A stretch of 64,000 bases of DNA from an uncultured Anaeromyxobacteraceae bacterium (GTDB lineage Bacteria; Myxococcota_A; UBA9042; DTJE01): contig CAYYCO010000002.1 of the NCBI GenBank assembly GCA_964470365.1, forward strand, positions 1,173 to 65,172, in the 5' to 3' direction. Shown here one piece after another: positions 96-23,104 of the stretch (the first letter of the stretch is position 1; each line of letters starts with the position of its first letter). A program made the translations under genes and the position numbers. The notes beneath the pieces were generated by a model. It saw only the letters and a program-made list of their open reading frames with translations, was not told the DNA's origin and searched no databases.

Positions 96-171
96 GCGCC
101 TGTGGCTCAATGGATAGAGCATCGGACTTCGGATCCGACGGTTGGGGGTTCGAGTCCCTCCAGGCGCGCCC
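96..171 (+). tRNA. tRNA-Arg (anticodon TCG), with encoded CCA
   Basis: Cloverleaf read by hand: acceptor GCGCCTG/CAGGCGC 7 bp, D-arm GGCTCAATGGATAGAGC, anticodon stem TCGGA/TCCGA with loop CTTCGGA (U33, anticodon TCG), T-arm GGGGG-TTCGAGT-CCCTC, discriminator G, CCA. Confidence 0.9.
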
Positions 172-266
172 AATTTCCCAAGATTCCTTAATGAATACGG
201 GCAGTATACCCCGATTGGCATCCATGCCCGTTTCGACTCGTTGACGGTCTTTTCACCTCGTTTCGA
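117..266. repeat. Direct repeat copy A (tRNA-Arg 3' ~55 nt plus ~95 bp downstream)
   Basis: About 85% identical to 1602-1751. Both copies start at gagcatcggacttcgg... and end at ...ggtcttttcacctcgtttcga. Confidence 0.8.
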
Positions 267-442
267 CTTCTTCGGGTTACCAAACGGAATCCACCGCAGC
301 CTTGTCCGCCGCGTCGGCCTGATATACTCTGGCTCCTCCGCGTGCTCTGGCGCCTCCGCGTGGGCTGCGGCGTTGAAGCAGAACGGACTTTGGGCAGAAG
401 ACCAGCCTGGCCAGGCCAATCGGCCCCAATGGGAGGCGAACC

Positions 443-1519
443 ATGAGGTGTTCGGTGAACGGATTGAAGGGAGTTGTTCCTATTCTCGTCTTCGTTACCG
501 CGTGCGGCGTAAGCGATGGCAACGCGGACGCCGATGCGGACCTGGGGGCCGACGTCGCCGTCGGCACGGATGCGGCGCTCGACATGACTTCCGATCTCGA
601 CGTCGCCCCGGATTCGGACTCAGGGCCGGAGATCCTCGAAGACGCCGGGGGTGATGCCTCGGACGCGTTCGTGATGCCAGACTACGCCGGGGTCCCAATC
701 GACTACGCCGAACACGTCAGGATGATGACCTTCAACCTGCGCACGCCTTTCGCCGACGAGGGAGACCGTCTGTGGGAAAACCGCAAGGAGGCCGTGGTCG
801 CTCAGATCGAGGACTACTCCCCGGACATCCTGGTCGTCCAGGAGGCCCTGCTCGTCCCACAGTTGGAAGACCTCGAGAAGGCGATCCCGAGACTCGACTG
901 GGTCGGCATGGACAACTCGGGAACCGTGTACTTCGACGAATATGCGGCCATCTTTTTCGACCATTCGAAGTTCGTGGTACTGGACTGGAAGACCTTCGCG
1001 TTGAGCGACACGCCGGACGTCCTGCCGAGCCAGATCAGCGACGAACAGAGGTTTCCCCGCGCCGCGACCTGGGGGCGCTTCCTGCGCATCGCCGACGGGT
1101 TCCAGTTCGACATCCTCTCGACTCACTGGGACCACGCGGAGGTCGATGGTATCCGTGAGGAAATGGCGCGCATCACCATCCAGCAGATGGATATCCTGAC
1201 GGAAGGAAGGCCTGCCCTGATCGGCGCGGACTTCAACTGCCCTTACGACTCGCTTCCCTACAACATCATGGTTGGGAAGGCTGAATGGAAGGGCGTCTCC
1301 GGAGACCTCACCGACGTCTGGGTGGAACTCGGCTTGCCCGAAGAAGGCACCTATCATTCCTGGGAGGGAGTGGCCAAACCGTCCAGCAGGATCGACTGGC
1401 TGCTCCGCAACGATGGGTTCGTCGGTTTTTCCGCGGACGTCCTGACCTCCACGTACCTTGGCCTGATGACGTCGGACCATTTCCCGGTCGTGGCTGAATT
1501 CGCCATCCGGACGCCTTGA
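443..1519 (+). CDS. Secreted lipoprotein, endonuclease/exonuclease/phosphatase (EEP) family
   Basis: ATG at 443 with GGGAGG 6 nt upstream. Signal peptide plus lipobox VTAC. Acidic low-complexity linker. MTFNLR...QE...SDHFPV motifs typical of the EEP fold. Confidence 0.75.
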   Translation: MRCSVNGLKGVVPILVFVTACGVSDGNADADADLGADVAVGTDAALDMTSDLDVAPDSDSGPEILEDAGGDASDAFVMPDYAGVPIDYAEHVRMMTFNLRTPFADEGDRLWENRKEAVVAQIEDYSPDILVVQEALLVPQLEDLEKAIPRLDWVGMDNSGTVYFDEYAAIFFDHSKFVVLDWKTFALSDTPDVLPSQISDEQRFPRAATWGRFLRIADGFQFDILSTHWDHAEVDGIREEMARITIQQMDILTEGRPALIGADFNCPYDSLPYNIMVGKAEWKGVSGDLTDVWVELGLPEEGTYHSWEGVAKPSSRIDWLLRNDGFVGFSADVLTSTYLGLMTSDHFPVVAEFAIRTP

Positions 1520-1601
1520 CCATGTCAGCGCGTCGCGCTCGGGAACGAGTGATCTTGAACGTCTTGATTCGGTAATCTTACCGGTGCGTTGCAGGCTTCA
1601 G

Positions 1602-1751
1602 GAGCATCGGACTTCGGTTCCGACGGTTAGGGGTTCGAGTCCCTCCAGGCGCGCCTAATTTCCCCAGATTCCTTAATGCATATCAGCAGTATGCCTTAAT
1701 AGGCAATCATACCGGTTTCGACTCGTTAACGGTCTTTTCACCTCGTTTCGA
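1602..1751. repeat. Direct repeat copy B, including a 5'-truncated tRNA-Arg fragment (1602-1658, pseudo-tRNA/att-like)
   Basis: gagcatcggacttcggTtccgacggttAggggttcgagtccctccaggcgcgcc matches the anticodon-arm to 3' end of the tRNA at 96-171 with 2 substitutions. The 5' acceptor/D-arm partner is degenerate. The downstream ~95 bp is also conserved. Confidence 0.75.
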
Positions 1752-1878
1752 GATGTCACTAAAATCGCTGAATTCAAGCATCATTGGGCAGGATGACCTG
1801 ATTCCACAATCAGCACGTGTGACACTCGCGGCGCCACCGGAATGGGCGACCATTGACCGGCCGACTTTCATGAATCCC

Positions 1879-2739
1879 CTACCGTGCGGCAAGGATTACG
1901 GCGAGAGTACGCAGTTTTTCCTGGAAGAATTCGGTGGACCACAGTTTCAAACCGGGCTGTTCGATGACGTGCAGGAACGGGGCGACATCGGCGGCGGCCA
2001 CGGACCAGTCGATTGACGGGATTCTGTCATCGAGGGCGCCAATCAACCAGGCGGCGTCGACGGCCACGTTCCGACCCGACCACGGCCCGGTCTGATTCAG
2101 GGCATTCGCCAGCAGGGCCAGGTTCGGCGGCGTCCGCTCGCGGCAATACCATCCGAAATCGAACCAGTCTCTGCCCTTCAGGTACGGCCGGCACAGCAGA
2201 GCGTGCAGCTTCAGCGCGAAATTTGACGGCAGGTCCTGGGCGCAGACTTCAAAATCCAGCGGAAAGTCGACCAGCCGGAAATCCCACCCCGATCCCGCCG
2301 GCGGGTTCGTGTCGATTTCAAGCTTGACCTTATGATTCTGGCGTCGCCCCGTCCCCGCAAAGGAAAATTCGAGCTGACCGGCGATTGAATCGTCCTTGAT
2401 GAATGCCGCCCGGACGGCGGTGTCGGCACGGCTGCGATCCACGAATTCGCAATGAATCCCGTACTCGGCCAGGACGTCCAGCAGACCGGAAGAGTACGTC
2501 GACCATCCAAAAGCGGGCTGCGGTTCCCGGCAGATGAAGTCCAGGTCTTCGGAAAATCTGGGCAATCCATGCAGGATGCGCAGTGAAGTGCCGCCCTGGA
2601 ATGCCGCAACGGAAAAAAAGTCCACCCGCCACAGCGCGTATAGCACAATCGACTGTAATGTTTCTTTCAGCGCCTGCTGTTCATGGGCGGCATCCGTGGC
2701 CGCGTACCCCGCCAGTCTTTTGCGGATGATTTCAATCAT
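1879..2739 (-). CDS. abiEii: AbiEii-type nucleotidyltransferase toxin (type IV TA / abortive infection, DUF1814)
   Basis: GGTSLRILHGLPRFSEDLDF signature. 4 bp ATGA overlap with the upstream AbiEi-like gene. Confidence 0.8.
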   Translation of the reverse strand: MIEIIRKRLAGYAATDAAHEQQALKETLQSIVLYALWRVDFFSVAAFQGGTSLRILHGLPRFSEDLDFICREPQPAFGWSTYSSGLLDVLAEYGIHCEFVDRSRADTAVRAAFIKDDSIAGQLEFSFAGTGRRQNHKVKLEIDTNPPAGSGWDFRLVDFPLDFEVCAQDLPSNFALKLHALLCRPYLKGRDWFDFGWYCRERTPPNLALLANALNQTGPWSGRNVAVDAAWLIGALDDRIPSIDWSVAAADVAPFLHVIEQPGLKLWSTEFFQEKLRTLAVILAAR

Positions 2740-3395
2740 CGTCTCAAACCTGTTTCAAGAGCCTGGATGCACTGGCGCATGCGGGAATGCTGGTACGTTT
2801 CGGTCAGGCGGCGCCAGACATCGGGCCCGATCGGTTCCATGTCATCGATGTCGATTCGCATCGAGGCCAGGAAAACGGGCATTTCCGCTGGCGTCATTCC
2901 GCGGTCACAGACGATGTCGGCCATCGCGCGCGCAGGATCGGCGACAAGTGCGTACTGATCGCCAAACTGTTGCCTGTCCACGCCCTCAAGGAAACAGCCG
3001 CGCCGCAACGCCATCGGAACGAATTGGTACATACCCGCGATTTCGTGCCGCACATCCAGTGAACGGCGCCCCGGGACGACAGACAGCGTCACGTGGACGG
3101 CCTCAGGGATCAGGCCGTGCCACGCCAGCGCGGTTTCCATCGACACATACGACCCGGGAGCCAGCGCCTGCGCAATGACGAATGGATGCGGCATCTTCCC
3201 CGTCAGCATCGGCGACAACATGTAAATGCCGCGCCGCAAACGGACAAGTTCACCCGCCTTCAACGCCCGGTTGACAAGGTTGTACCGTCGCTGGGGCGAA
3301 CCCTCCAGCAGCCGGGCAACCTGGGCCTGGCCAATGACCCGTTCGCCCAGTTTCGCTTGAATCAACTTTTCGGTGAGGGTTTGCATGTAATGCAT
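2736..3395 (-). CDS. abiEi: AbiEi-family antitoxin/transcriptional regulator
   Basis: N-terminal wHTH-like region with ...LVRLRRGIYML... typical of AbiEi. Operon partner of AbiEii. The ORF track opens with TTG at 3422. The first ATGs are at 3395 and 3386, so the start is uncertain. Confidence 0.65.
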   Translation of the reverse strand: MHYMQTLTEKLIQAKLGERVIGQAQVARLLEGSPQRRYNLVNRALKAGELVRLRRGIYMLSPMLTGKMPHPFVIAQALAPGSYVSMETALAWHGLIPEAVHVTLSVVPGRRSLDVRHEIAGMYQFVPMALRRGCFLEGVDRQQFGDQYALVADPARAMADIVCDRGMTPAEMPVFLASMRIDIDDMEPIGPDVWRRLTETYQHSRMRQCIQALETGLRR

Positions 3396-3524
3396 GATAC
3401 TTTCATTTTTCGAAAGTTTCAAACATTCATGGCACCCGGGAAGCCGCGCAGTTGCGCAATGATGGGGGACTCAAGGCCGCTTTCATGCAACGCCGCGGGT
3501 GCCGACCGACGGGGCGCGCCACCA

Positions 3525-4706
3525 TCACCACCGCTGGAGGCTTTTTTCCGCGAAACCCGGGATGTCGCGCACCTGCAGGACCGTGCAGTCGTCAAGGACA
3601 AGCGTGCCGTTGTACATGCCGTACACCTTGGTGCCGTGCATGTAATATCCGCCGATGTCGAGTTCCGTCGGGACATGGGTGTGCGGGGTCAGTGTGAGGT
3701 CCATCCGGCCGTCGGGGCTCTGGATGACCCACGGTTTCAACGGATCGTCCGGGTCCATTTCCCATGTCATGCCGTCAAAGGCGCCCAGCTTGTGGATGAC
3801 GCCGTCGACGAGGATGCCGTCCGCGCTGGCCTGCTGGTTGGCGTCCAGCCCGGCGCCCATGTTGAACGCCACGTCGTGCCCGTCGATCACGCCATAGCCC
3901 GCGCCCCAGAACCACTGCGATTCGTGCGGCCAGGCGCCCCTGCCCCAGTCCAGCACGCCCCACGCGTCGTCGCGTGAAAAGTCGGCCCGCACGTCGCCGG
4001 CCGTCACCCAGCCGGATGTGCGCCATCCGAAGATCTTGTCTTCATAGAAAAAAGTTCCCGGATCCAGCAGCGGATGGGCCACCGAAAGACTCTCGAAACC
4101 AGGACCGTCCCCGAACACGATTTCGCCCTTGAGGTCGACGTCCCCGAACTTCCCGGGGATGTCGAACGCCAGGATACGTGCGCCGTCGGCGAACGAAATC
4201 GAAATGTGGTTGTCGCCCTGGTTCCAGCCGGCGTCGGCGTACGGCGAATCCGGCAGGATCGGGTTGGTGTCGTCGCCCAGGTCCCAGCCCGAATACTTGT
4301 CGCCCGTTTCATAGTTCAGCAGGGTGACGCCGATGAACGAAAACCAGGAAAGCCGCGCGATGGTGACCTCCGCGTACCAGTCCGGGGACTGCACCGAGTA
4401 GAAATCCCAGTCCTTGACCTGTTCCGCCAGCGATTCCGGGATTTTCGACGGGTCGTATTCAAAAATCGGGCGCCGCGCCCACGCGATTGTCGCCAGGCTG
4501 CCGTCGTCGGCCAGCACCGGCGCCCGGGAAGTCAACTCGACCTGCTCGCAGGGGCTGACGGCACAGGCCGACGGTTCGCAGGCATCGACAGGGGCAGGAT
4601 CGCCCGAACACGACAGCAGTGCCGCGGCCAGCAGCAGCGACGCGAGGGACTTCGGCCGCCGGTGACCGCGTCCGACCGGAAGGGAGCCGGATTGATTCGG
4701 GAACAT
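3525..4706 (-). CDS. Hypothetical lipoprotein (possibly DUF2804-like)
   Basis: Track ORF begins with GTG at 4760. First ATG at 4706 gives a classic signal peptide plus lipobox LLSC. Trp/Gly/Asp-rich beta-rich protein. Family assignment is tentative. Confidence 0.6.
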   Translation of the reverse strand: MFPNQSGSLPVGRGHRRPKSLASLLLAAALLSCSGDPAPVDACEPSACAVSPCEQVELTSRAPVLADDGSLATIAWARRPIFEYDPSKIPESLAEQVKDWDFYSVQSPDWYAEVTIARLSWFSFIGVTLLNYETGDKYSGWDLGDDTNPILPDSPYADAGWNQGDNHISISFADGARILAFDIPGKFGDVDLKGEIVFGDGPGFESLSVAHPLLDPGTFFYEDKIFGWRTSGWVTAGDVRADFSRDDAWGVLDWGRGAWPHESQWFWGAGYGVIDGHDVAFNMGAGLDANQQASADGILVDGVIHKLGAFDGMTWEMDPDDPLKPWVIQSPDGRMDLTLTPHTHVPTELDIGGYYMHGTKVYGMYNGTLVLDDCTVLQVRDIPGFAEKSLQRW

Positions 4707-4786
4707 GCGCAATACCCTGAAACGAGTCCCCCTATTATGTGCCTGCGGCGCGGATTTCACCTATACCGTGCGCCGACTTTCCGGCG

Positions 4787-6948: not shown

Positions 6949-9288
6949 TCACGGACTTGACCACAACGCCTTCTCGCCGCTCATGCCCCCGTCAATCCGC
7001 TGTATGGGATACAAGCCGATCCGATCAGGGCTTCCGCCTGTCGCCAAATGGACGTGGTCCCTGATCAATTCCCATGCGTCGCCCCAGGGCATGAGCCTGT
7101 TCTGGTAATTCAAGCGATATTCCAGCGGTTCAATACTGTGATCCGCAAGCAGGAAGATATGCTTGAATCTGGACAGGTGACGCCGCTGCAATTCCAGCTG
7201 CTCCCGACAGGCAACCAGGTCGGCGGCGGGCGGTCTTGCGGTCGAATCGTTATCCGTAATCGCAATATTCGAGTACTTGCTGGTATTGAATCTGTCCACC
7301 AGGAGATTCTGCGCGAATTCAATACTCGTGCTGACGGGACATTGCGCGGGCCAGAGCTTTTCCACGGGGTAGACGGGGCTTTTCCCGATGATGGCGACAT
7401 ACGGCCAGTCAGCCTGATCCTGTCGATGATTAAATGCAATCACGAGGGAATCCGGAGGCGGATCGAAAGTCGAGACGCTCTTGAAGACCTCGGCAATCGG
7501 CCCCAAGCGGATTCCCGCATACTGGACCCAGCCGAAAACCAGATAGAAAGCCAGAAGGGCCAGGGCCCAGCGGTGGTTCCGGGGTCGCGCAATCCATTCG
7601 CGTATATAGGGGGCGCTGATAATCGCCATTGGAACGTACAGCATGAGCGCATAGCGCCAGAAATTCACGCCCACGGGGCTCAAGGCATTCGAGTATATGA
7701 GCAGGCAGACGATAACGATGAGCTGGTAAGCCCTGGCACGCGGCACCTGCGGATCCTTGAGGGATTTGACGAAAGCCAGCTTCTGCGGAAGAAAAGGCGG
7801 CAGGATGAGTACCGTTGCCAGGAACCATATCGGCAATTTCAGGTACCAGTACGAAACCGTGTCCCCGCCTTTGTTGGCAACCTTGCGCAGGAACGCGCCG
7901 ACCAGCGTGTCGAGATTCCCGGAAAATAACAGAATGAGCATGGCCGCCACGGCCCCCCAGAGGCCGACAATGGCGAAGGCCCGCCAACGCACCCTCCTGC
8001 GCTCGACCCCGTAGTGGCAATATGTCGCCATAAAGGCGACATAGAGTGGCGGCAGGATCATGTAGTCTTTCTTGAGCGCGACGCCCAGCGCCAGCATGAA
8101 CGCAATGGCGACGGAGGCCGCGAACTGCAGCGGCAGGCCCTTGGGCACGGCGTACACGGCCAGCAGCAGGGCCAGATAAAAAACCGGCGTGGCCAGCTGT
8201 TCCTGCACCAGGCTGCCGGCCTGTCCCGTAGTCACGGGCGACAGCAGCACGATGGCGGCGGCAATCAACGCGATGGCCCGTCTGCCATACAGCTTGAAGG
8301 CCAGCAGAAAGGCCAGCACCGGCAACAGCGCCCCCAAAGCGCGACCAGGCAGCAACAGCGCCCCGAAATGATCGCCGAACAACTGCATGGATATATGCAG
8401 CAAGCCGAAAAAGGCCCCGTCATGCTGTCCGTGCCTTGTCCAGACAAGCTGCTGCAACAGCCATGACTTTGAGTGCACGAAAAACAGCGGCGCCGCAAAC
8501 CGGCTGAGCACGCTGAACAACGCAAGCGGCGCATAATAAATGTACGCCCGGACCGGCAGAAGAAACCAGCCGAACACAAGCAGCACAACCAGACAGATGG
8601 TACCGCTGATCAGCCCGAAGCCCCACGGCACATCGGCCATGGGCAAGGCAGGAATCAAGGGTGCGTAGGGGTATTTCGACACGTCGGGGGCCTGCGGCGG
8701 CCCGTCCGGCGACGGGGGCTCCATCTGTTGCGTATCCGCCTGCGCGGGTCCGGATTCGGTCGGCAGCTTTTCATCGTCACGGGCGCTGGTTCTGACCCAC
8801 AATGCCGCCAGCCGTTCGGCCTTGTCGCCCTGAAGAAACCACGATCGCCAGGCATCCACCCCGGCAATGGATACTGCGTTGGACGAAATGCCGCCCGCAC
8901 CATCGGAAAGGCAGATCAGCAGACTCTCATTGCCGAGCACCCGACATTCGCCGGCATCCGGCGGCGCCTGCCCCGCATGGCAGATCGCGAACGAGGGCTT
9001 TTCGGACGGTCCGGTGTCCGTCGTGGTCAGCGTCAGCAAATACTTGTCGAAGGCGATGCGCACATCGACGCTGGCAAATGGCAGGCCGGTGAAGTCGGTC
9101 GGGATCAACAGGTCGGCAGCCGGCCTTTCGGCGGAGCCCGGCACGATGTAGCGGGCATCATCGTCACCCGTGTCGGGCATGCCGTTTGCAGGGCTGGCGC
9201 CGAGCAGGAACAAGCCGGTGAACACGGTCGCGACAATCACCGGTATCGTTGGGTCACGCGCAGGACGCATCGTCGTTGGCCCCGTCAT
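6949..9288 (-). CDS. Large polytopic membrane protein, GT-C-type glycosyltransferase-like (ArnT/PMT-like); family tentative
   Basis: 779 aa. N-terminal signal/exported domain, roughly 11-13 TM helices, C-terminal ~250 aa soluble domain. 4 bp overlap with the upstream rSAM gene. Confidence 0.45.
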   Translation of the reverse strand: MTGPTTMRPARDPTIPVIVATVFTGLFLLGASPANGMPDTGDDDARYIVPGSAERPAADLLIPTDFTGLPFASVDVRIAFDKYLLTLTTTDTGPSEKPSFAICHAGQAPPDAGECRVLGNESLLICLSDGAGGISSNAVSIAGVDAWRSWFLQGDKAERLAALWVRTSARDDEKLPTESGPAQADTQQMEPPSPDGPPQAPDVSKYPYAPLIPALPMADVPWGFGLISGTICLVVLLVFGWFLLPVRAYIYYAPLALFSVLSRFAAPLFFVHSKSWLLQQLVWTRHGQHDGAFFGLLHISMQLFGDHFGALLLPGRALGALLPVLAFLLAFKLYGRRAIALIAAAIVLLSPVTTGQAGSLVQEQLATPVFYLALLLAVYAVPKGLPLQFAASVAIAFMLALGVALKKDYMILPPLYVAFMATYCHYGVERRRVRWRAFAIVGLWGAVAAMLILLFSGNLDTLVGAFLRKVANKGGDTVSYWYLKLPIWFLATVLILPPFLPQKLAFVKSLKDPQVPRARAYQLIVIVCLLIYSNALSPVGVNFWRYALMLYVPMAIISAPYIREWIARPRNHRWALALLAFYLVFGWVQYAGIRLGPIAEVFKSVSTFDPPPDSLVIAFNHRQDQADWPYVAIIGKSPVYPVEKLWPAQCPVSTSIEFAQNLLVDRFNTSKYSNIAITDNDSTARPPAADLVACREQLELQRRHLSRFKHIFLLADHSIEPLEYRLNYQNRLMPWGDAWELIRDHVHLATGGSPDRIGLYPIQRIDGGMSGEKALWSSP

Positions 9289-10283
9289 CTGCCATTAAAC
9301 AATTTCTGACGCACCACATTCGCCACAGCAGAAGGGTTCAGCGCATAAAAAAGGTTGAATTCCAAACGGTTGGCGCACCAGCAATCCGCACAGGTAACTT
9401 TGCCGATCGAATCGAAGGCCGCCTGCAGCCCGACTTCGGCAGCATTCATTCCCGCTCTTGGCACACGACACCGACCACACGGGAAGACATTGCCGAGCGC
9501 GTCAATCCTGCAGGAAACCAGTCCCCCGGCACATTTGATTTCCGTCGGATCCGGCCACCGCCGCAAATGCCGCAGGCCGGCAGGCGAATTGATGATAATC
9601 CGCCTGGCATCCGAACGTTTGCGCGCAATCAATTCATCGATGGCGCGGGTGTACGCCGGTCTTGACGGGGAGAGCGAGTTGTCCAGACCGGAACCGAGCT
9701 GCAGGTGAACGGAAGGCTGAAAACCAACGGGAAGGCGGAGTTCGGAGCAGAGAGTGACCACTTCGCCGATGCGTTCGGCGTTCAATGAATTGATGGTGGC
9801 CGATGCAACGACGTGCAGGCCGCGAGCCCTGGCGGCGTCAATCGCCGAGATCACCTTGTCAAACGTGCTCCTGTGACGAATCCGGTCGTGAATATCGGCC
9901 AGCCCCTCCAGAGACACCGCGATCTGCGACAGCCCGACGATTTCGTTCAGCCGTTCCCCGAGCAGTATTCCGTTGGTGTTCAGCTTTACCAGCATGTCAT
10001 GGCCGCTCGCACGCCTGACGATTGCCGGCAGGTCCTCGCGCAGGAGCGGCTCGCCCCCGGTCAGACTGACTGCGATCGTGCCGCAGGCACGCATCTGGTC
10101 GATCAGATTCAGACACTGTTCCGTGCCCAGTTCGTCGGGAATGCGTTGCCATATGCTGCAGGACGGGCATTGCTCGTTGCAGCGTCCGGTAATGGCCCAC
10201 CCGACAATCAGAGGCCTGCGCACAGGGAGGATTTTCGAGCCCATCAGAGGCAGGGCCCTAATGGCCTTTTCAATCTTTTTCAT
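9285..10283 (-). CDS. Radical SAM enzyme with C-terminal SPASM domain (paralog B)
   Basis: CNEQCPSC (CxxxCxxC), GGEPLL, and C-terminal CAGG...C...PCGRC...CADCWC cysteine cluster. Track start is GTG at 10349. First ATG at 10283 gives an N-terminus the same length as paralog A. Confidence 0.85.
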   Translation of the reverse strand: MKKIEKAIRALPLMGSKILPVRRPLIVGWAITGRCNEQCPSCSIWQRIPDELGTEQCLNLIDQMRACGTIAVSLTGGEPLLREDLPAIVRRASGHDMLVKLNTNGILLGERLNEIVGLSQIAVSLEGLADIHDRIRHRSTFDKVISAIDAARARGLHVVASATINSLNAERIGEVVTLCSELRLPVGFQPSVHLQLGSGLDNSLSPSRPAYTRAIDELIARKRSDARRIIINSPAGLRHLRRWPDPTEIKCAGGLVSCRIDALGNVFPCGRCRVPRAGMNAAEVGLQAAFDSIGKVTCADCWCANRLEFNLFYALNPSAVANVVRQKLFNGR

Positions 10284-11277
10284 GACAATCGTTTTTTGCG
10301 GCTGCGGCTGTGCCGTTCCTGCATAACACTTTACTACCCAACGACGCACGAAACAATGAAACCGCGCCGACGGAGGCCGGCAGCAGGCGCATTATCAAGG
10401 TGACCGCCAGGGCTGACGCGAAGATGGTCGACGCCGGCCCGTCCGAGGCAAAAATCAGAAGAGCCGCGCCCTCCCTGGTTCCAAGCCCGGCAAAAGAAAG
10501 CGGCAGTGCACCGACGACGTGCAACAACAGCAGCTTGTCGAAGAAAACGCCCCCGAGCACCGGTGCAAAAAACGCCACCAGCACCGCGAAGCGCAGGAAT
10601 TCATCAATGTAAACGAGCGCCATCAGGCTGACCCTCGCGGGCACCCTCATGCCGGCGATCGCGGCCAGCGCCCCCTTCAACTGATGAATCAGTTTCCACT
10701 TTTCCGGCTCGCCCTGCCCCTGCTTGACGGCCCCGGGCATTTTGATCAGGCATAGCGCAAGGCATGTCGACAGCATGGTCAACGCGATAAGGGTCCACTG
10801 GAGCGGGGGATTGCCGTAACCGAGCAGCCCCATGCCCAGCGGCAGCAGGCCCAGCAGAGCCAGGAGTTTGTCCAGGCCCCACAGGCTGATTGACTGCCCG
10901 TTGTTCAGTCCCAGGCGCCTGCCCACGACGTAGTACGCGCCGGGATCGCCCAGGAAAAATGGAACGAACGCCTTGATAAACAGCAACAGTGCCCGATTAT
11001 CAATGAGGCGGCCGAAGCCCACAGGCACGCCGATTGCGTTCAGCAGCAGTCGATGGCGCAGGGCCCGCAGGATGAAGTTCGCCAGCACGCTGGCCAGTAT
11101 CGCGAATGCCAGCGCACGCAGGTCAACTGCCATGAGGACCGAAAATTCATCCCGCTCCCCGGCGTGAATCAGATACGCGATGCACAGGCCATACAGAACC
11201 GGCACCGGGGCCAGCTTCAAAATGAATCGGGCCCGGGGCGTCAGTCGACCGAATGAATGTTCGAGAGAAACCGGCAT
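10270..11277 (-). CDS. Flippase-like / lysylphosphatidylglycerol-synthase TM-domain family membrane protein (UPF0104)
   Basis: About 8 TM helices with a ...FAGLGTREGA... motif typical of LPG_synthase_TM. Track start is GTG at 11310. First ATG at 11277. Confidence 0.55.
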   Translation of the reverse strand: MPVSLEHSFGRLTPRARFILKLAPVPVLYGLCIAYLIHAGERDEFSVLMAVDLRALAFAILASVLANFILRALRHRLLLNAIGVPVGFGRLIDNRALLLFIKAFVPFFLGDPGAYYVVGRRLGLNNGQSISLWGLDKLLALLGLLPLGMGLLGYGNPPLQWTLIALTMLSTCLALCLIKMPGAVKQGQGEPEKWKLIHQLKGALAAIAGMRVPARVSLMALVYIDEFLRFAVLVAFFAPVLGGVFFDKLLLLHVVGALPLSFAGLGTREGAALLIFASDGPASTIFASALAVTLIMRLLPASVGAVSLFRASLGSKVLCRNGTAAAAKNDCHEKD

Positions 11278-11321
11278 GCCCACCCCGCCGGCCACGCAAG
11301 GCCGCGTCACAGAGCCATATG

Positions 11322-12752
11322 TTATTTCTTTCGCTTTCTGGTATCCGAATGGACGGCATAGACCAGCATCCGAAGGGCGGTTCGAGCGCCACGCCGGAAT
11401 TCTTCCTTCGAACGGACGCGGGAGAGCGCCCGCAGGACATACGTGGGCCGATAATAGAACCAGTAGTAGGCCATCTTAGTCCACAGTTCGATGCTGCCCT
11501 CGCTCATCTCCGTCCACGGGTTCGGCAGGCGCGCCTCCTCCGCGTTGCCAAGAATGTAATCCCGCCAGAAATCCTTTCCGGTGCGTTTGATCATTTCCGA
11601 ATCGAGATCCGTGCAGGGCTTGGCGATGGTGCGGGAGAACTGGGCGTAATCCAGATCGAGACCGGTGGCATAATCGATGGTACGCAGAAGGCTCATCGGA
11701 GTCTCGCCCGGTACACCGGTCATGAAGAATCCCAGAGCCTTGATTCCGGCCTGGCGCGTCGCACGCAGCGCCAATGAAACCTTCTTCGCATCGACCTTCT
11801 TGTTCATCAGTTTCAGATGGTCTTCCGACGAGGTTTCAATTCCGAAATATATCTTTCGGCAGCCGGCACGGGCCATCAGGTCAAGCAGATCCGGATCCAC
11901 GGCATCTATGCGCGATCGACAGGACCATTCCAGATCCATCTGCCGTTCGATAAGCCCGTTGCAGAGATCGGTGATGCGGCGCCGATTTAGAGGGAAATCG
12001 GCGTCAAAGAAGTCGATTTCCCGCACGCCGTACTTGTCGTAACACTCCTGGATCTCTTCCAGAACGCTCCCGACGCTGCGGGCGTAATACGGGATCTTCG
12101 CGATGGCACAGAATGAGCACTTGTAGGGACACCCCTTGCTGGTAAGCATGATGGTGAAATTGCGGCGCTGGGACGTGATGGAATAATAACGATCATTGGG
12201 CAGCAGATGGCGCGCCGGGAACGGAAGTTCGTCGAATTCGGACTCCGTCGCGGGCGGCGAGATCACGATGCCGCCTTCCCGGCGATAGCAGACGCCCGGA
12301 ATGCCGTCAGGCTCCGTCCCTTTTTCAAGGGCATCGATCAGAAGGGGCAGAGAGTGCAGTGCCTCGCCGGAAATCGCGTAATCAATCGCCTCGTGGGTCA
12401 TCGTTTCCCGCGGATAGAGGGACAGGTTGATTCCGCCGGCCAGAATCGTCGCGCCAAGCGCCTGACGAATCGCCGCGGCATAGGCAAGGGTGTCGTGAAA
12501 CATGTAGGTCGAAAAATAGAAACCCACGTATTTCGGGGCAAATTCGGACAGGGCGGCGATCGTTTCCGGGATGCCGAGCTTCAGTGCATTTGCGTCCAGC
12601 AGAATTACTTCGTGGCCGGCCTTTTCCGCAATCGCCGCCGCATAGGCCAGGTTGATCGGGGGAAAAACCCCGAAATCCTTGTCCACTACCAGGATGTTTT
12701 CTGAAAAACGCTTGTGTTCATAAGGGGCAAAAACAAAAGCGATGCGAGCCAT
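11322..12752 (-). CDS. B12-binding-domain radical SAM enzyme (class B rSAM)
   Basis: N-terminal Rossmann-like B12-binding region (ARIAFVFAPY...VILLDANAL), then KGCPYKCSFC radical-SAM motif and the TIM-barrel core (IYFGIETSS). Confidence 0.85.
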   Translation of the reverse strand: MARIAFVFAPYEHKRFSENILVVDKDFGVFPPINLAYAAAIAEKAGHEVILLDANALKLGIPETIAALSEFAPKYVGFYFSTYMFHDTLAYAAAIRQALGATILAGGINLSLYPRETMTHEAIDYAISGEALHSLPLLIDALEKGTEPDGIPGVCYRREGGIVISPPATESEFDELPFPARHLLPNDRYYSITSQRRNFTIMLTSKGCPYKCSFCAIAKIPYYARSVGSVLEEIQECYDKYGVREIDFFDADFPLNRRRITDLCNGLIERQMDLEWSCRSRIDAVDPDLLDLMARAGCRKIYFGIETSSEDHLKLMNKKVDAKKVSLALRATRQAGIKALGFFMTGVPGETPMSLLRTIDYATGLDLDYAQFSRTIAKPCTDLDSEMIKRTGKDFWRDYILGNAEEARLPNPWTEMSEGSIELWTKMAYYWFYYRPTYVLRALSRVRSKEEFRRGARTALRMLVYAVHSDTRKRKK

Positions 12753-12755
12753 GCG

Positions 12756-13745
12756 TTAATTCACCAGCCGCACAACGTCCGCCAGAGGCCGCGGATCAAG
12801 TGAATACAGCATGTTAAGTTCGAGCGACCCGCAGAAACCGCATCCGCTGCACGATACGGCCGGAAGTTTCCCGATTGCCTCGCCAATGCTGCTGGTACGG
12901 ATGTTCGGCAGCGGCGTCGCGTACGAGACGCGATCGCAGGGCAGAATCGTTCCGTCCGAATCGATCATTATAAATACTTTGCCGGCCGAACATTCCAGGG
13001 GAGGATAGTTGGGCCAGTCGGAGATGTATTTCAGTTCGGCCAGGGAATTTCGGATGCTCCGGTTGCCGCCGCGTTTCTGATCGGTCAGCCAGGCAACAGC
13101 GTCACGCATATCAATGGCATCCGGGGCCAGTTCCCCGACGTTTTCCACCCCACGATATAAATCTTTTACCGGTTGAAATGCCACCACGCACCCAAACCCT
13201 TCAGCAATTTCGAGGATTTGCGGCAAGTGATGAACATTGAAGCGCGTTATCGTGGTCGAAAAACTGATCTTCTTGAGCCGCCGCGAGGCCAGTTCTGCGG
13301 CTTCAATTGCGGCCGCGAAAGCACCCTTCCTGCCACGCACCAGGTCATGAATTTCTTCCGGCCCGTCCAGGCTGATCTTCAGCAGTTCCAGGCCGGCGAG
13401 CTGGTCAATCCGTTTGTGGAGCATGTAACCGCTGCTGTTCATGCTCGGCGCCAGCCCCAATTCGGCCGCGCAGGACACCAGTTCACCGATATCCTTTCGA
13501 AGCAACGGTTCGCCGCCGGAAAATGAAACGTGAACGGTGCCCAGCGATTTCAATTCTGCCAGGCCCCGCTTGATAATCTCGGTCGGAAGTTCCGAAGTTG
13601 CCGAATTTCCCCAGATGTTGCAGTAGGCGCAACGATTGATACAGCGATCCAGCAGATTCCACCGCACCGCCACCGGAACGGGCCGCCCGCCAAGACGAAC
13701 CTTCAGCAGGCAAAGACTGGCCTTGAGTTGTCGCGTGACTCTCAT
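12756..13745 (-). CDS. Radical SAM enzyme with C-terminal SPASM domain (paralog A)
   Basis: CINRCAYC, GGEPLL, and C-terminal ECSAG...PCDRV...CSGCGFCGS. An ATG also exists at 13871. The 13745 start makes its N-terminus co-linear with paralog B. Confidence 0.85.
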   Translation of the reverse strand: MRVTRQLKASLCLLKVRLGGRPVPVAVRWNLLDRCINRCAYCNIWGNSATSELPTEIIKRGLAELKSLGTVHVSFSGGEPLLRKDIGELVSCAAELGLAPSMNSSGYMLHKRIDQLAGLELLKISLDGPEEIHDLVRGRKGAFAAAIEAAELASRRLKKISFSTTITRFNVHHLPQILEIAEGFGCVVAFQPVKDLYRGVENVGELAPDAIDMRDAVAWLTDQKRGGNRSIRNSLAELKYISDWPNYPPLECSAGKVFIMIDSDGTILPCDRVSYATPLPNIRTSSIGEAIGKLPAVSCSGCGFCGSLELNMLYSLDPRPLADVVRLVN

Positions 13746-14059
13746 TACCGAATCCCGATACCGCAGCCGCCCGGCTTGATGAAGGGATGAAGAAACCCCC
13801 ACAACCCCAATTCGGCAAAGTATGCCAATACTGACCGGGTTGTCAAACCGGTCTTCTCCCGATATTCCCATCCGTCGGGGCGGTTCGGTCGACGCGGGTC
13901 GCGGGCGCGGGCTGCTGCAGGTGCTGTGAACGCTCCGGATGTGTCAGGCAAATCTCCGGTTCCGGTTTGACTTCGCCGGACTCCATGAAATAAACTTTTG
14001 TCCGGCAATTCGTCTGATTGTGACAACCGATTGCTCTGACTCATTTTCTGGCAATAAAG
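13746..14059. promoter_or_regulatory. Divergent intergenic region (probable bidirectional promoter/operator) between the rSAM operon and the nitrogenase-like operon
   Basis: 314 bp non-coding (188 bp if the rSAM starts at 13871). Contains an imperfect inverted repeat ggcaattcg...ccgattgc near 14000-14035. No sigma-70 consensus could be assigned confidently. Confidence 0.35.
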
Positions 14060-14878
14060 ATGCAGCGCGAACGGGTGGCGGTGTACGGCAAGGGAGGGGG
14101 TGGCAAGTCTTTCATTTCCGCCAACCTTTCCGTTGAATTCTCGCGCCATGGTTACAGCACCCTGCAGATCGGCTGCGACCCCAAACACGATTCGACCAGG
14201 TCACTCACTTCCGGCAAATCCATCAGGACCGCGCTTTCGTACATGGAAGAAACCGGCCGGCTTGTCGGCAACACGGAATTCGACGTTGTCCAGGGACTTG
14301 AAGGTGTTGCGTGCGTCGAAACCGGCGGGCCGGAACCGGGTGTCGGCTGCGCGGGTCGCGGGATCGTCAGCGCTTTCCAGTTTTTCAGGTCCAGGAACCT
14401 CCTGGACAGATACGACGCCGTGGTGCTTGACGTCCTGGGCGACGTCGTCTGCGGCGGATTCGCCGTGCCGATGCAGCGCGGATTCGCGGAAAAGATCGTC
14501 ATCGTCGTTTCCAATGCCCTCATGTCCATGTATGCGGCGAACAACATCGCACGTGCCCTGGTCCGGTACCGCCGAAACGGGGTATTTCTGGCCGGCATAA
14601 TCGCGAACAATCTTCGCGACGACGACGACGAACAGGAAATTCGACGTTTCGCCGAAGGGTTGAGGGCGCCGGTCATCGCCGCGTTCCGCCATGACCTTCT
14701 GGTCCGCAGGGCCGAAAGGATGGCGCTTCCGCTGCTGGTGGCATTTCCCGACTGTTCCACGGCCGGGGCCTTCCGCGGCCTGGCCGATGCGATAATCAAC
14801 GCCGGCCGGGTCGATGACTGCCCGACGCCATACAGCGAGGAAGAACTGGACTGTTTCTTCAGGAGCCTGCACGAATGA
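14060..14878 (+). CDS. NifH/BchL/CfbC-family ATPase (nitrogenase-like Fe-protein homolog)
   Basis: YGKGGGGKS P-loop, CDPKHDSTR switch I, GGPEPGVGCAGRG (Cys97 equivalent) and VLGDVVCGGFAVP (Cys132 equivalent, switch II). Confidence 0.9.
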   Translation: MQRERVAVYGKGGGGKSFISANLSVEFSRHGYSTLQIGCDPKHDSTRSLTSGKSIRTALSYMEETGRLVGNTEFDVVQGLEGVACVETGGPEPGVGCAGRGIVSAFQFFRSRNLLDRYDAVVLDVLGDVVCGGFAVPMQRGFAEKIVIVVSNALMSMYAANNIARALVRYRRNGVFLAGIIANNLRDDDDEQEIRRFAEGLRAPVIAAFRHDLLVRRAERMALPLLVAFPDCSTAGAFRGLADAIINAGRVDDCPTPYSEEELDCFFRSLHE

Positions 14879-17031
14879 AGCAGTCGCAGCATCGTGCGAT
14901 CCTTGATGAATTTTCGTTCATGGCGCGCCGTCTCGGGTTCAGAATGATGGTCCCCCGTCCCGACGGGTCCCTGTTCATTCTTGTCGAACCGGGGCGCCGG
15001 CTCCTCTGGGTTCCCGAGGCGCGGGCCGGGGATATCGTGGTCAAGGGCATCCCCGGGGGGTTTTCCGGCGACGGGATCGCGCCCGCGGATCTCGAAAACA
15101 CGACACTTCGCCTGCGCGAATCGCTCGAGAGAAAAGAACTGCCGCTTCTGACGTGGCGCACGAATACCGATGTCCCGATTGAACTGTCCAGGTGGCTGGT
15201 CGATTTCCACCTCAGTCCTTTCCTTCAGGAAGAAGTGAGCTCCTGGGGTGAATTCAGGCTGCAGAAAGTCGAGGAACTCGGGGTCGACTCGGTTGCGGTG
15301 ACGTTCCAGGCCCGCGATGCCGTTGTCGTGTGCGAGGTCCGCGCGCTTCGGCTGGTGGATGCGCTAGAACTTTCGCAGTGGCATGTCGTGAATCCGCTGG
15401 CCTGGCGCGTCACTTCCGACACGCGGCTTGATGTCGAGGGCTACAGGGCGCGGCCGGAATACTATCTGTCATATGCCCTTGTTCGAACCTTCGCCCCGGG
15501 CCAGGTGACAAGGGCATTCATTCAGCCGCCAGGCGGGGCCGCGGCCGGCGAGGCCGGCGGTGGAAAAGGATGCACGATCGCTGCCGGCGACGGCTCCGGG
15601 AAAGAGGCCCGCGACACCGTCGCACAGGGATGTTCCTGCGCTTTGCCGCCCGATCCCCGGCAGGAAGTCCCGATCGACAGATTCTTCATGCCTCCGGATT
15701 TCAACCTTCTGGGCGCAGGCGACGTCTTCAGCACCCTTAACAATGCCGGGCCTGAATTCGCGCTGCTTTTCGTTGCGCCGCGCGCCTGCCTGAAGATGCC
15801 GATGTCGGCCAGCTTCAACGCGACAACCTATCTGTGGCACCGGTACGCCAGCCTGCCCATGCAGGTTTCCCGCGCGGTCGCCGCAGTCACCACGATTGAC
15901 GAAATCGACCTGGTGATGAGCATGGAGCGCCAGGTCGTGCAGGTGCTGGACAAGTCGCTGGAGGATCCCGGGGTCAGGATCCTGGTGGTGTTCAGTTGCT
16001 GCGTTGCGGATTTTGTCGGACTTGACGTCGAAGGTATCGTCAGGGAGCGCCTTGGGGATTCGCAAATGCCGCTGATTCTCTGGGGGGCAAGCCCCTGGGG
16101 TCTCGCTTCGGTCGAGGCTTTCTGGCGCCAGGTGTTTGCCATAGCACCACGTCCCCGTTCCGGATTCAAGCCTTCAGGCGTCAACCTTGTCGGGTTCGCG
16201 CCGAATGATTCCCGCATGACGGCGGAACTTGCGCTTGATCTTGGGTCAGCAGGCATCAGGGTGAATTCCACGATGGTGCCGAGCCTTGAATACGACGCTC
16301 TTAACGCGTTCAACAACGCGGAACTCTCCGTGGTTCCGATCGACGACAGCGTCCGCCTGGAACTCGGTTCGGTCCTGGAAGAAACTACATCTCCCCCCGT
16401 TTTGAGGGTTCAAAGACCTTTCGGACTCGATGGAAGCCTGAAGTTCGTCAGGAGCGTGGCATCAACCCTGGGGGTCGCCGAGGCTCCGGGGCTGCTGGAA
16501 AGCGCCGAACGGCACAGGGCCGCCTGGGACGAATACAAAACCCTGGCCTCCGGCTGCACCGTGGCCATCCCTCTCGACATGAGGACGGCTGCCTGCATCA
16601 CCAGACCCGGTGTGCTGTACGGGATCCCGGTGGTGGATCTCATCCGGGAGATGGGTTTCCGTGTCCTGATCATCGTCAGTTACCGCCGTGAAGATGGCGA
16701 AGACGTCCGACAGGTTGTCAGGGAGATCCGCTCCCTATATCCCGAGGGTGTCGATCCCGGCATTGTCATCGAAACGGCGTCGGGCGCCGAAGCGCTTCTC
16801 GATCGACTTGCGGCGGACGACGTTTCGATGGTCATGTCGGAGTTCGCGCCGGACACGCGCGTCACGGAAATGGGAAAATTCAGTTTCGCGCCGCGGCAGC
16901 TTGAGATGGGGCTGGCGGGGGCATTGCGTTCGCAACGGCTGTTGCTGCGGATGGCCCGGTCATCGTCCGTGCTGCGTCGTTTCGACGCCGTCGCCCGGGA
17001 CGCGGTCGGCTTGCCGGGGGAGGTGGTGTAA
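14875..17031 (+). CDS. Nitrogenase component-1-like (NifD/BchN/ChlN-like) subunit with ~235 aa N-terminal extension
   Basis: ATGA overlap with the NifH-like gene. C-terminal ~480 aa carries Oxidored_nitro-like motifs: ...FVAPRACLKM (cf. ChlN GSRTCAH), ILVVFSCCVADFVGLDV (cf. ChlN LVGSCPSEVIKLD, NifD TTCTTGLIGDD) and VNLVGF...AELALDLGSAGIRVN (cf. NLIG...E..LLE.GI.VN). N-terminal 1-235 has no recognisable domain. Confidence 0.7.
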   Translation: MKQSQHRAILDEFSFMARRLGFRMMVPRPDGSLFILVEPGRRLLWVPEARAGDIVVKGIPGGFSGDGIAPADLENTTLRLRESLERKELPLLTWRTNTDVPIELSRWLVDFHLSPFLQEEVSSWGEFRLQKVEELGVDSVAVTFQARDAVVVCEVRALRLVDALELSQWHVVNPLAWRVTSDTRLDVEGYRARPEYYLSYALVRTFAPGQVTRAFIQPPGGAAAGEAGGGKGCTIAAGDGSGKEARDTVAQGCSCALPPDPRQEVPIDRFFMPPDFNLLGAGDVFSTLNNAGPEFALLFVAPRACLKMPMSASFNATTYLWHRYASLPMQVSRAVAAVTTIDEIDLVMSMERQVVQVLDKSLEDPGVRILVVFSCCVADFVGLDVEGIVRERLGDSQMPLILWGASPWGLASVEAFWRQVFAIAPRPRSGFKPSGVNLVGFAPNDSRMTAELALDLGSAGIRVNSTMVPSLEYDALNAFNNAELSVVPIDDSVRLELGSVLEETTSPPVLRVQRPFGLDGSLKFVRSVASTLGVAEAPGLLESAERHRAAWDEYKTLASGCTVAIPLDMRTAACITRPGVLYGIPVVDLIREMGFRVLIIVSYRREDGEDVRQVVREIRSLYPEGVDPGIVIETASGAEALLDRLAADDVSMVMSEFAPDTRVTEMGKFSFAPRQLEMGLAGALRSQRLLLRMARSSSVLRRFDAVARDAVGLPGEVV

Positions 17032-22809: not shown

Positions 22810-22894
22810 CGAACCCACCGGGCGATCACCATCCGGCACAAACCGCTTGACAATCCCGCGCCTTTCGCAAATAATCTGTCCGCTTTTTGGCTGT

Positions 22895-22967
22895 GGGCCC
22901 ATAGCTCAATTGGTAGAGCAGCGGACTCTTAATCCGGAGGTTGGCAGTTCGATTCTGCCTGGGCTCA
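22895..22967 (+). tRNA. tRNA-Lys (anticodon CTT)
   Basis: Acceptor GGGCCCA/TGGGCTC, D-arm GCTCAATTGGTAGAGC, anticodon loop CTCTTAA (CTT), T-arm GGCAG-TTCGATT-CTGCC, discriminator A. CCA is not encoded. Confidence 0.85.
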
Positions 22968-23104
22968 CCCACTTCCCCACGAAATCACTGGAAAAACTAA
23001 TTTCGGTGGTTACGTATGTCCACGCCGCGGCAGAATCGTAATCGATGCATCTGATGACTTTCCGGACAGGTTGAACGTGCGGGCGGTGTGCAGATGACGG
23101 ACGG

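Follow-up and report, generated by a model that had tools for sequence, protein, structure and literature searches.

A putative one-gene islet without an integrase in the 3' part of tRNA-Arg(TCG) in uncultured Myxococcota

Organization of the tRNA-Arg(TCG) locus

The 64,000-nt stretch of DNA analysed here (the window) opens on an intact tRNA-Arg(TCG) gene, designated T. Downstream of it lie a single gene of the EEP fold enclosed by two copies of a 150-nt direct repeat, an AbiE pair and a DUF2804 gene. The features, in window coordinates, are as follows.

95-172, + strand: T, intact tRNA-Arg(TCG) gene in an attL-like position (ARAGORN; Rfam tRNA model, 71.6 bits at 96-168)
117-266, + strand: repeat copy A, made up of the 3' 54 nt of the tRNA (117-170) and a 96-nt flank, M (171-266)
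267-442, + strand: linker K and EEP upstream region, with an 18-nt tandem repeat at 327-362
443-1519, + strand: gene of a predicted EEP lipoprotein of 358 aa, the cargo (PF03372, E = 1.7e-08)
1520-1601, + strand: segment x, from the EEP stop codon to T'
1602-1655, + strand: T', a 54-nt tRNA-Arg(TCG) fragment from the 3' strand of the D stem to the acceptor end, a displaced-fragment or attR-like element
1656-1751, + strand: M', a second, diverged (83%) copy of the tRNA 3' flank
1879-2739, - strand: AbiEii (PADLOC, 2.8e-94)
2736-3422, - strand: AbiEi (start at 3395 according to gene callers; PADLOC, 9.2e-77)
3525-4760, - strand: DUF2804 gene (PF10974)

The ARAGORN and Rfam calls bear out the tRNA-Arg that a previous, sequence-only reading of this DNA had placed near the window start. 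The gene closes the cluster tRNA-Arg(TCT)-tRNA-His-tRNA-Arg(TCG), whose upstream members were read in the near-identical contig L001. In other phyla, tRNA-Arg(TCG) and tRNA-Lys(CTT) are adjacent.

The genes of the AbiEi transcriptional antitoxin and the AbiEii nucleotidyltransferase toxin, a type IV toxin-antitoxin or abortive-infection pair, are adjacent, and their ORFs overlap by 4 nt. Both the Pfam set for the pair (PF08843/PF13338) and PADLOC identify them, in agreement with the earlier placement of an AbiE pair just past copy B.

The 150-nt direct repeat

The repeat search aligned the two copies (117-266 and 1602-1751) with 88% identity, 18 mismatches and no gaps; the coordinates of the sequence-only reading thus stand, and its estimate of about 85% identity is replaced by the measured value. 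For two sub-motifs of the repeat (24 and 37 nt), exactly two occurrences each were counted in the window, with none expected from 100 shuffles. A profile search with nhmmer found no third copy in the 64 kb, which ruled out a larger or tandem island marked by such a copy. Copy A begins with GAGC, which forms the 3' strand of the D stem, passes the 3' end of the tRNA and continues for approximately 96 nt, as had been read (a start inside the tRNA and about 95 bp beyond it). Both edges are sharp, since similarity to the left of 117 (p = 0.83) and to the right of 266 (p = 0.13) is that of shuffled sequence.

Divergence between the copies is uneven. T and T' match in direct orientation at 52 of 54 positions (117-170; 3.7% divergence), and along M the mismatches number 3 of 24 (171-194), 12 of 35 (195-229) and 1 of 37 (230-266). 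M and M' accordingly diverge by 17% overall and by 34% in their core (66% identity), and the 37-nt block that closes M, GTTTCGACTCGTTGACGGTCTTTTCACCTCGTTTCGA, is identical at 36 positions and contains two CGTTTCGAC direct repeats. The uniform divergence expected of a simple segmental duplication was not seen. The difference between 17% for M/M' and 3.7% for T/T' is better explained by two origins, an island arm and a native flank, than by one duplication.

Copy B is not a tRNA gene by the methods applied: ARAGORN made no call, the Rfam score of 22.9 bits is below the gathering score of 29, and the folding energy is no better than that of shuffles (z about 0). These results uphold the earlier view that copy B lacks a functional 5' half. 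T' begins just 5' of the anticodon stem. A degenerate full-length tRNA was rejected because the sequence 5' of 1602 resembles a tRNA no more than shuffles do, and a conserved RNA structure in T' or M because folding equals that of shuffles and Rfam gave no match beyond the tRNA model.

The cargo gene and its recent exchange

The single credible gene between the copies (443-1519, + strand) belongs to Pfam PF03372 (Exo_endo_phos). In the translated sequence, the N-terminus MRCSVNGLKGVVPILVFVTAC has the appearance of a lipoprotein signal with a lipobox, and the EEP-fold protein is predicted to be an exported lipoprotein. The description of the interval as holding only an EEP lipoprotein gene is therefore retained. 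Self-mobilization by the protein as a nuclease (LINE endonuclease fold) was judged unlikely in view of the export signal.

A comparison of dS between lineages covered seven gene families. The EEP block is 95-96% identical at the nucleotide level across three deeply diverged lineages, with an EEP dS of 0.056-0.072. The values for syntenic flanking genes are 1.26 (DUF2804), 1.3-1.8 (a 516-aa gene), 1.6 (MatE), 1.9 (Lcl_C) and 0.43 (enolase). Because the EEP dS is this low while flanking genes are saturated, the block was clearly exchanged, horizontally and recently, between distantly related Myxococcota. In the three lineages compared it has always landed 3' of tRNA-Arg(TCG). The gene also occurs in an unrelated, tRNA-free context in L018 and L019, where homology to the window starts at 350; T' is absent there and in the third lineage described below.

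Comparison of the locus between lineages

The locus was compared between the lineage type of the window (W; the window, L001 and L020-L022), a sister lineage (L010; 8 contigs) and a third lineage (L3; at least 10 contigs). Lineages that are saturated with substitutions in their other genes share a fully (100%) identical tRNA-Arg(TCG) gene, and their identity across the entire tRNA cluster region (84-86%) far exceeds that of the flanking genes.

The tRNA flank corresponding to M is 94.6% identical in L3 and 75% identical in L010, where it lacks 62 nt relative to the window. This state of the L010 flank would be unexpected had M travelled with the EEP gene. The linker K varies even between near-identical strains: L001 is 100% identical to the window over 417-3573, and yet its K lacks 67 nt and has an alternative unit. 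W and L010 share 90-93% identity over K, x and T'. Conservation of segment x (93%) extends as far as the start of T', which occupies the same place in L010, and homology between W and L010 ends exactly at 1655, the last base of T'. The end of the fragment is thus the start of lineage-specific DNA. M' was found only in the lineage of the window, with no counterpart after T' in L010, and is most likely the displaced native tRNA flank of that lineage. The treatment of the repeat as one unit consequently holds for the lineage of the window and fails for the second lineage, in which only the 54-nt tRNA fragment recurs. L3 retains the first ~39 nt of x only and has no T'. The junctions of the shared block therefore vary by lineage, R-S being absent from L010 and x/T' from L3, and imprecise or homologous recombination accounts for this variation no less well than a site-specific process.

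Synteny between W and L010 resumes at window position 3488, with DUF2804 as the first gene (78% nucleotide identity). What fills the variable slot between T'/M' and DUF2804 depends on the lineage; in W it is the AbiE pair, which lies outside the EEP islet. In L010 the slot measures 3.8 kb and contains three unannotated ORFs in place of AbiE. L3 has an AbiE pair that corresponds to different PADLOC models, lies at a different position and is flanked by a separate direct repeat of ~28-30 nt, not by tRNA fragments. An AbiE pair adjoins M-type sequence in both W and L3. Membership of M in a mobile AbiE cassette was rejected, as AbiEii homologues with 71-78% identity occur elsewhere with neither M nor a tRNA nearby and the W and L3 pairs best match different PADLOC models.

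A further candidate, the 22.7 kb from tRNA-Arg(TCG) to tRNA-Lys(CTT) as one island, was rejected because this region consists of ordinary genes syntenic across the clade and because tRNA-Lys also lies beyond MatE in L3.

Searches for an integrase, a parent element and an empty site

A Pfam screen of the non-overlapping ORFs of at least 100 aa in the window found no PF00589 integrase, consistent with the sequence-only reading. The upstream integrase for which that reading proposed to look outside the window was not found: L001 carries only tRNA-His and tRNA-Arg(TCT) there, sister lineages have housekeeping genes upstream, and an integrase just beyond the window was rejected. In L010 and L035, none was detected over ~9 kb on the upstream side or 10 kb on the downstream side; the sole trace was in L010, where a fragment adjoins tRNA-Thr 8.5 kb upstream. 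Genome, metagenome and viral scans yielded neither an unoccupied tRNA-Arg site in relatives nor an integrase-bearing parent or helper element, and scans of viral contigs gave no match to a parent phage or element. L005 has an identical tRNA in an unrelated neighbourhood, and searches for an empty site by way of DUF2804 and distant EEP homologues led to unrelated contexts.

Interpretation of the repeat-bounded interval

We regard the interval 117-1601, with a probability of roughly 0.58, as a decayed CIME-like element: a tiny islet that was acquired horizontally and occupies the 3' part of tRNA-Arg(TCG). The earlier preference for an att-like island remnant over a segmental duplication is supported by the EEP dS, the end of homology at the 3' end of T' and the sharp junctions. 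The decayed, CIME-like character follows from the lack of a recombinase gene in the islet. An observation against the island reading is that L3 has the EEP block and yet no T'. According to the sequence-only reading, its interpretation would be refuted by relatives with the same arrangement as conserved core and no adjacent integrase. Relatives with this arrangement and no adjacent integrase do exist; conserved core, however, it is not, being far younger than its surroundings.

Besides a tRNA 3' end that replaced the native one, the islet would carry ~100 nt of flank (M), linker K, the EEP gene and x. It may have arrived as a circle of ~1.5 kb with an attP-like region of ~230 nt in which x is followed by the tRNA 3' fragment and then by M; the lengths of x, T' and M sum to about 232 nt. 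Recombination between the circle and the chromosomal tRNA gene would regenerate the tRNA from island-borne sequence (copy A) and displace the original 3' fragment with its native flank (T' and M', copy B) 1,485 nt downstream, segment x being the putative island-side arm of the attR-like junction. The repeat would extend over 150 nt in this model because the island arm and the native flank are homologous. The vehicle of spread may have been a tyrosine integrase from a helper, acting in trans or in cis, or RecA recombination through the conserved tRNA sequence. The repeat with its sharp edges, the recent horizontal exchange of the EEP block, the boundary at the end of T' and the lack of an integrase are observed. 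We infer the circular intermediate, which of the copies is island-borne and the enzyme involved, the participation of an integrase included.

Alternative explanations

An unlikely alternative is that no integrase ever acted and that RecA-dependent or homology-facilitated illegitimate recombination moved the block, with the near-invariant tRNA genes as anchors. T' would then derive from a one-off partial duplication or from a Campbell-type insertion of a circle via the 54-nt homology. The perfectly conserved tRNA between otherwise saturated lineages, the similarity of the cluster region and the lineage-dependent junctions all agree with such a process, as does the failure to find an integrase near the locus; differences in K between strains that are identical over 3.1 kb point to frequent recombination here. 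On the other hand, 54 nt is a very short anchor for genomes so diverged, an initial event that creates T' is still needed, and the onset of the fragment 5' of the anticodon stem, as in islands made by integrases, is left unexplained.

It is improbable that the repeat is an old within-genome duplication of the tRNA 3' part and its flank, with copy B as a decayed pseudogene and EEP as an unrelated resident gene. Such an event would accommodate the 96 nt by which the repeat outruns the tRNA, the lack of an integrase and the occurrence of the arrangement in a second lineage. The EEP gene and its flanks are, however, far younger than the neighbourhood, a single duplication predicts neither the contrast between the tRNA part and the flank with its core nor the missing M' after T' in L010, and a tandem duplication of 117-1601 would have doubled EEP as well.

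Slightly more improbable still is selection on copy B or on the block at the end of M, whether for a role in the EEP 3' UTR (a tRNA-like signal for processing or stability) or for one towards the neighbouring AbiEii (a tRNA-mimic decoy or regulator). MenT toxins, relatives of AbiEii, modify the acceptor ends of tRNAs. In the anticodon stem of the L010 T' there is a compensatory double change (A31G and U39C), the block at the end of M is nearly invariant next to a core of 66% identity, and AbiE adjoins M-type sequence in two lineages. Against a function of this kind, T' diverges between lineages by ~7%, at about the same rate as adjoining non-coding DNA, and copy B neither folds better than shuffles nor reaches the Rfam threshold. 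The conserved block is missing from L010, the EEP gene occurs without T' in L3 and L018/L019, and neither a tRNA nor M lies close to the AbiEii homologues mentioned above.

An assembly or binning artefact, with a chimeric join at the tRNA sequence of co-occurring species, is highly improbable: all sequences are metagenomic and short Logan contigs break inside T'/M', but independently made assemblies, drawn from different samples and pipelines, show the same structures, and the copy-specific mismatches are reproduced exactly.

Relation to known elements and significance

The Islander signature is an intact tDNA and a displaced tDNA fragment that bound an island, with an integrase as a requirement (Hudson, Lau and Williams 2015, PMC4383910). 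At the present locus, an intact tRNA gene and a cognate 3' fragment in the same orientation lie on one replicon, and the DNA between them was, judging from the EEP dS relative to the flanks, horizontally acquired. The start of the fragment near the anticodon stem is compatible with the anticodon-centred class, which makes up about half of the islands in the Islander database, and the reconstructed attP of about 230-250 bp is close to the quoted size of roughly 250 bp (PMC4383910). In contrast to Islander islands, the interval spans only ~1.5 kb and holds the EEP gene as its one cargo gene, with no tyrosine integrase gene; in the lineage of the window, identity runs 96 nt past the tRNA, and neither an empty site nor an excised form was seen.

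CIMEs are a recognised class of elements that keep attL and attR and have lost their integration genes; they were described in the ICESt1/ICESt3 family and are catalogued in ICEberg 2.0 (PMC5704250, PMC6323972). The islet resembles them in that an integrase is missing in every lineage: judged from its sequence, it has two att-like repeats at the 3' end of the target gene and no genes for integration or transfer. Like CIMEs, it also stands next to other variable DNA in a tandem or accretion-type arrangement, and evidence points to continuing spread. By definition, however, a CIME descends from a known ICE or IME and is mobilised by a related helper, and neither a parent nor a helper turned up for the islet in the genome, metagenome and viral scans; the islet also lies in Myxococcota, not in Firmicutes. 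In the definition of Hacker and Kaper as cited in PMC2704930, genomic islets are horizontally acquired regions of <10 kb. The interval agrees with them in its small size, tRNA link, flanking direct repeats and lineage-specific neighbours; the term is purely descriptive and, unlike our model, implies no mechanism.

As in defence hotspots beside tRNA genes, the tRNA-Arg slot holds differing AbiE models in two lineages and unrelated ORFs in a third; the difference is that the AbiE pair here lies outside the repeat-bounded islet. It is unlikely that the 1.5-kb unit, with its attP-like region of ~230 nt and one cargo gene, is a still-active mobile cassette that crosses deeply diverged Myxococcota, a recombinase in trans both inserting it at tRNA-Arg(TCG) and excising it again; defence cassettes, AbiE among them, would then land in the slot behind the displaced fragment. 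If this were true, the unit would be the counterpart, for tRNA targets, of integron cassettes or Xer-dependent elements.

The islet belongs to a known class of feature in an unusually minimal form and is a modest addition to that well-known class. Island finders that require an integrase would discard such sites. The locus provides an example from uncultured Myxococcota of a tRNA-proximal slot filled with different defence genes by lineage. If its movement uses a recombinase from elsewhere, the islet, with one gene and an attachment site, would come close to the lower size limit for a mobile unit that targets a tRNA.

The tRNA-Arg locus and its direct repeat

A repeat search of the window returned a single long direct repeat of 150 nt, gapless and with 88% identity, whose first copy begins inside an intact tRNA-Arg gene predicted by ARAGORN and matched by the Rfam tRNA model at 96–168 (71.6 bits). 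The imperfect 150-bp repeat beside a tRNA-Arg described in the sequence-only reading was thus borne out.

Features of the locus (window positions)
95–172, intact tRNA-Arg(TCG), designated T
117–266, copy A of the repeat
171–266, 96-nt flank, designated M
267–442, linker, designated K
443–1519, EEP-fold gene (endonuclease/exonuclease/phosphatase, PF03372) with a lipoprotein-type signal; the sole gene between the copies
1520–1601, segment designated x
1602–1751, copy B of the repeat
1602–1655, 54-nt tRNA fragment, designated T′
1656–1751, second copy of the flank, designated M′
3′ of copy B, minus strand, AbiEii and AbiEi, then DUF2804

Two sub-motifs of the repeat each occurred exactly twice in the window (none expected from shuffles), and a profile search detected no third copy there. 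Copy A extends from the 3′ strand of the D stem to 96 nt beyond the tRNA, and the edges are sharp, with the similarity left of 117 and right of 266 no better than that of shuffled sequence. The divergence is uneven: the copies differ at 2 of the 54 positions of the tRNA part, at 3 of the next 24, at 12 in a 35-nt core and at 1 in the last 37-nt block, corresponding to 3.7% between T and T′ and 17% between M and M′. Copy B is not a tRNA, as judged by ARAGORN, Rfam and folding.

The AbiE pair lies just beyond copy B, as the sequence-only reading had also stated, and is outside the repeat-bounded unit. That reading saw no integrase in the window, and none (PF00589) was found among the screened non-overlapping window ORFs of at least 100 aa. 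Its proposal to look for an integrase beyond the window gave a negative answer directly upstream, because in L001, a near-identical Logan contig, T closes a tRNA-Arg(TCT)-tRNA-His-tRNA-Arg(TCG) cluster. In three other phyla (L002, L004, and L006), Arg(TCG), Lys(CTT), and Leu(TAG) directly adjoin one another in the order Pro-Gly-Arg-His-Arg-Lys-Leu. In this clade, Arg(TCG) (95–172) and Lys(CTT) (22894–22971) are 22.7 kb apart with ordinary genes between them and no tRNA-Leu following; the split is also found in the L3 lineage described below and is therefore old.

Comparison with related lineages

DNA-pattern scans and protein look-ups brought up two more lineages from the Myxococcota clade to which the window belongs. 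The L010 type (L010–L017, including contigs of GCA_035430925.1 and GCA_035386465.1) has enolase, radical SAM, CutA1, and YbaK-like genes ahead of the tRNA cluster, after which come a partial M, then K, EEP, x, and T′. Behind T′ is a 3.8-kb stretch whose three ORFs are unannotated; DUF2804, Lcl_C, genes of 286 aa and 516 aa, and MatE lie beyond it in that order. Colinearity with the window spans 4–1655 at 88.5% identity; the homology ends precisely at the final base of T′ (1655) and synteny returns at DUF2804. T′ is present and M′ is absent, while the M adjoining the tRNA is 75% identical to that of the window and lacks 62 nt.

The L010 tRNA fragment (L010 11185–11238) has two mutually compensating substitutions, A31G and U39C, in what was the anticodon stem and is also changed at loop position 38, where T′ of the window differs too, by another base. 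The first ORF behind it (L010 11291–12406, 371 aa) is made of diverged ~81-nt tandem repeats, has no Pfam or PADLOC match, and differs between strains L010 and L017. Within ~9–10 kb of the locus, the only integrase in any lineage was a tyrosine integrase gene fragment (L010 61–842) adjoining tRNA-Thr(CGT), 8.5 kb upstream of the tRNA-Arg cluster, which probably belongs to another island cut by the contig end.

The L3 type (L003, L007–L009, and L035–L040, including a contig of GCA_035401265.1) has the same tRNA cluster followed by M, an AbiE pair, K, and EEP, without T′ and DUF2804. Its 1.58-kb AbiE pair, whose best matches are different PADLOC models from those of the window pair, is inserted at the end of M and flanked by an imperfect direct repeat of ~28–30 nt derived from that end (CACCTCGTTTCGATTTCTTCGGGTTACCA; L003 1748–1775 and 3357–3390). 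A GGTTACC motif occurs beside this repeat and in a palindrome upstream of AbiEi.

L001 is 100% identical to the window over 417–3573, yet its K differs (283–420 versus L001 529–600): it shares an alternative unit, GGAATCCGGCGGGTCATCTCCTTGTCC, with L3 and lacks 67 nt (an alignment gap) beside an 18-nt tandem repeat at 327–362. The pattern suggests recombination or slippage at this site.

A fourth context was found in L018/L019, where homology is limited to window 350–1536 and EEP (84% aa identity, dS about 0.18–0.20) has no tRNA and lies between type ISP restriction and Mrr nuclease genes and an IS91-family (Y2) transposase (L019 960–6411, GCA_029975745.1). Here EEP sits in another mobile setting, unrelated to the tRNA locus.

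Elsewhere in the window, 9285–18276 carries a gene cluster for a nitrogenase-like reductase system. Its products comprise a NifH-like ATPase, two proteins resembling nitrogenase component 1 (718 and 414 aa), an LPG_synthase_TM protein, and three radical SAM proteins, of which one has a B12-binding domain and another matches SPASM weakly, below threshold. The L010 and L3 loci, as far as they were retrieved, yielded no counterpart.

Age of the EEP block

Synonymous divergence was calculated from codon alignments.

dS between lineages
EEP, all pairs of window, L010 and L3: 0.056–0.072
Enolase, L010–L3: 0.43
DUF2804, window–L010: 1.26
516-aa gene, all pairs: 1.3–1.8
MatE, window–L3: 1.6
Lcl_C, L010–L3: 1.9

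EEP is 95–96% identical in nucleotides, and the non-coding K, x, and T′ are 90–93% identical between the window and L010. The low dS of EEP relative to the flanking genes, together with these identities, indicates that the K-EEP-x-T′ block, located just 3′ of tRNA-Arg(TCG) in three lineages, is far younger than the host chromosomes. The block has been exchanged horizontally. The dN/dS of EEP (roughly 0.55–0.7 between lineages) and the absence from the L3 copy of some 45 residues in the Asp-rich linker behind the lipobox suggest relaxed or diversifying selection on a predicted exported enzyme.

Origin of the locus

Islands integrated at tRNA genes leave a regenerated tRNA, the island, and a displaced 3′ fragment whose end is the island end (PMC4383910), and the anatomy of the window fits this Islander-type mapping signature. 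We consider integration of an islet at the tRNA the most probable explanation (about 0.58), and infer the following mechanism of block movement. At copy A, a chromosomal 5′ tRNA part would be joined to sequence brought by the island; the other island arm would consist of x plus the left edge of T′, and the remainder of T′ and all DNA beyond would be the original chromosome. Such an arrangement explains why the window–L010 homology ends exactly at 1655, why T′ in the window is followed by M′ and then by lineage-specific genes, why M and M′ have diverged so much more than T and T′, and why the combined length of x, the tRNA fragment, and M (~232 nt) is normal for an attP. The att-like island remnant proposed from the sequence is supported with one refinement: what recurs in a second lineage is the 54-nt tRNA fragment only, and the 96-nt tail M′ is most likely a displaced native flank. 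Because a recombinase gene is absent in all lineages, the most fitting description of the EEP unit is a decayed islet resembling cis-mobilizable elements (CIMEs), which retain attL and attR and have lost integration and transfer genes (PMC5704250, PMC6323972).

The diverged, shortened M of L010, the lack of T′ in L3, and shared-block junctions that vary between lineages do not fit this reading. Neither do the tRNA-cluster spacers, 84–86% identical across lineages and far above the flanking genes, or the K difference between otherwise identical strains. Together these features suggest an additional role for homologous recombination via the invariant tRNA sequences in shaping the locus. Such recombination may be how the block spreads at present, although as the main account it is rather unlikely. 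A plain internal duplication fits the data less well and is improbable. Slightly more doubtful still is a functional RNA or DNA element in copy B or the M-end block, suggested mainly by the single compensatory change in L010 and the strongly conserved 37-nt block; a structure signal is absent, T′ diverges at a neutral-like rate, EEP occurs elsewhere without T′, and AbiE homologues occur elsewhere without a nearby tRNA. An assembly artefact has next to no likelihood, since each arrangement is repeated in many independent assemblies, which rules out chimeric assembly.

AbiE fills the interval between T′ and DUF2804 in the window lineage, and the three unannotated ORFs do so in L010; these differing contents, together with the insertion in L3, indicate that the tRNA-Arg-proximal region acts as a hotspot for repeated insertion.
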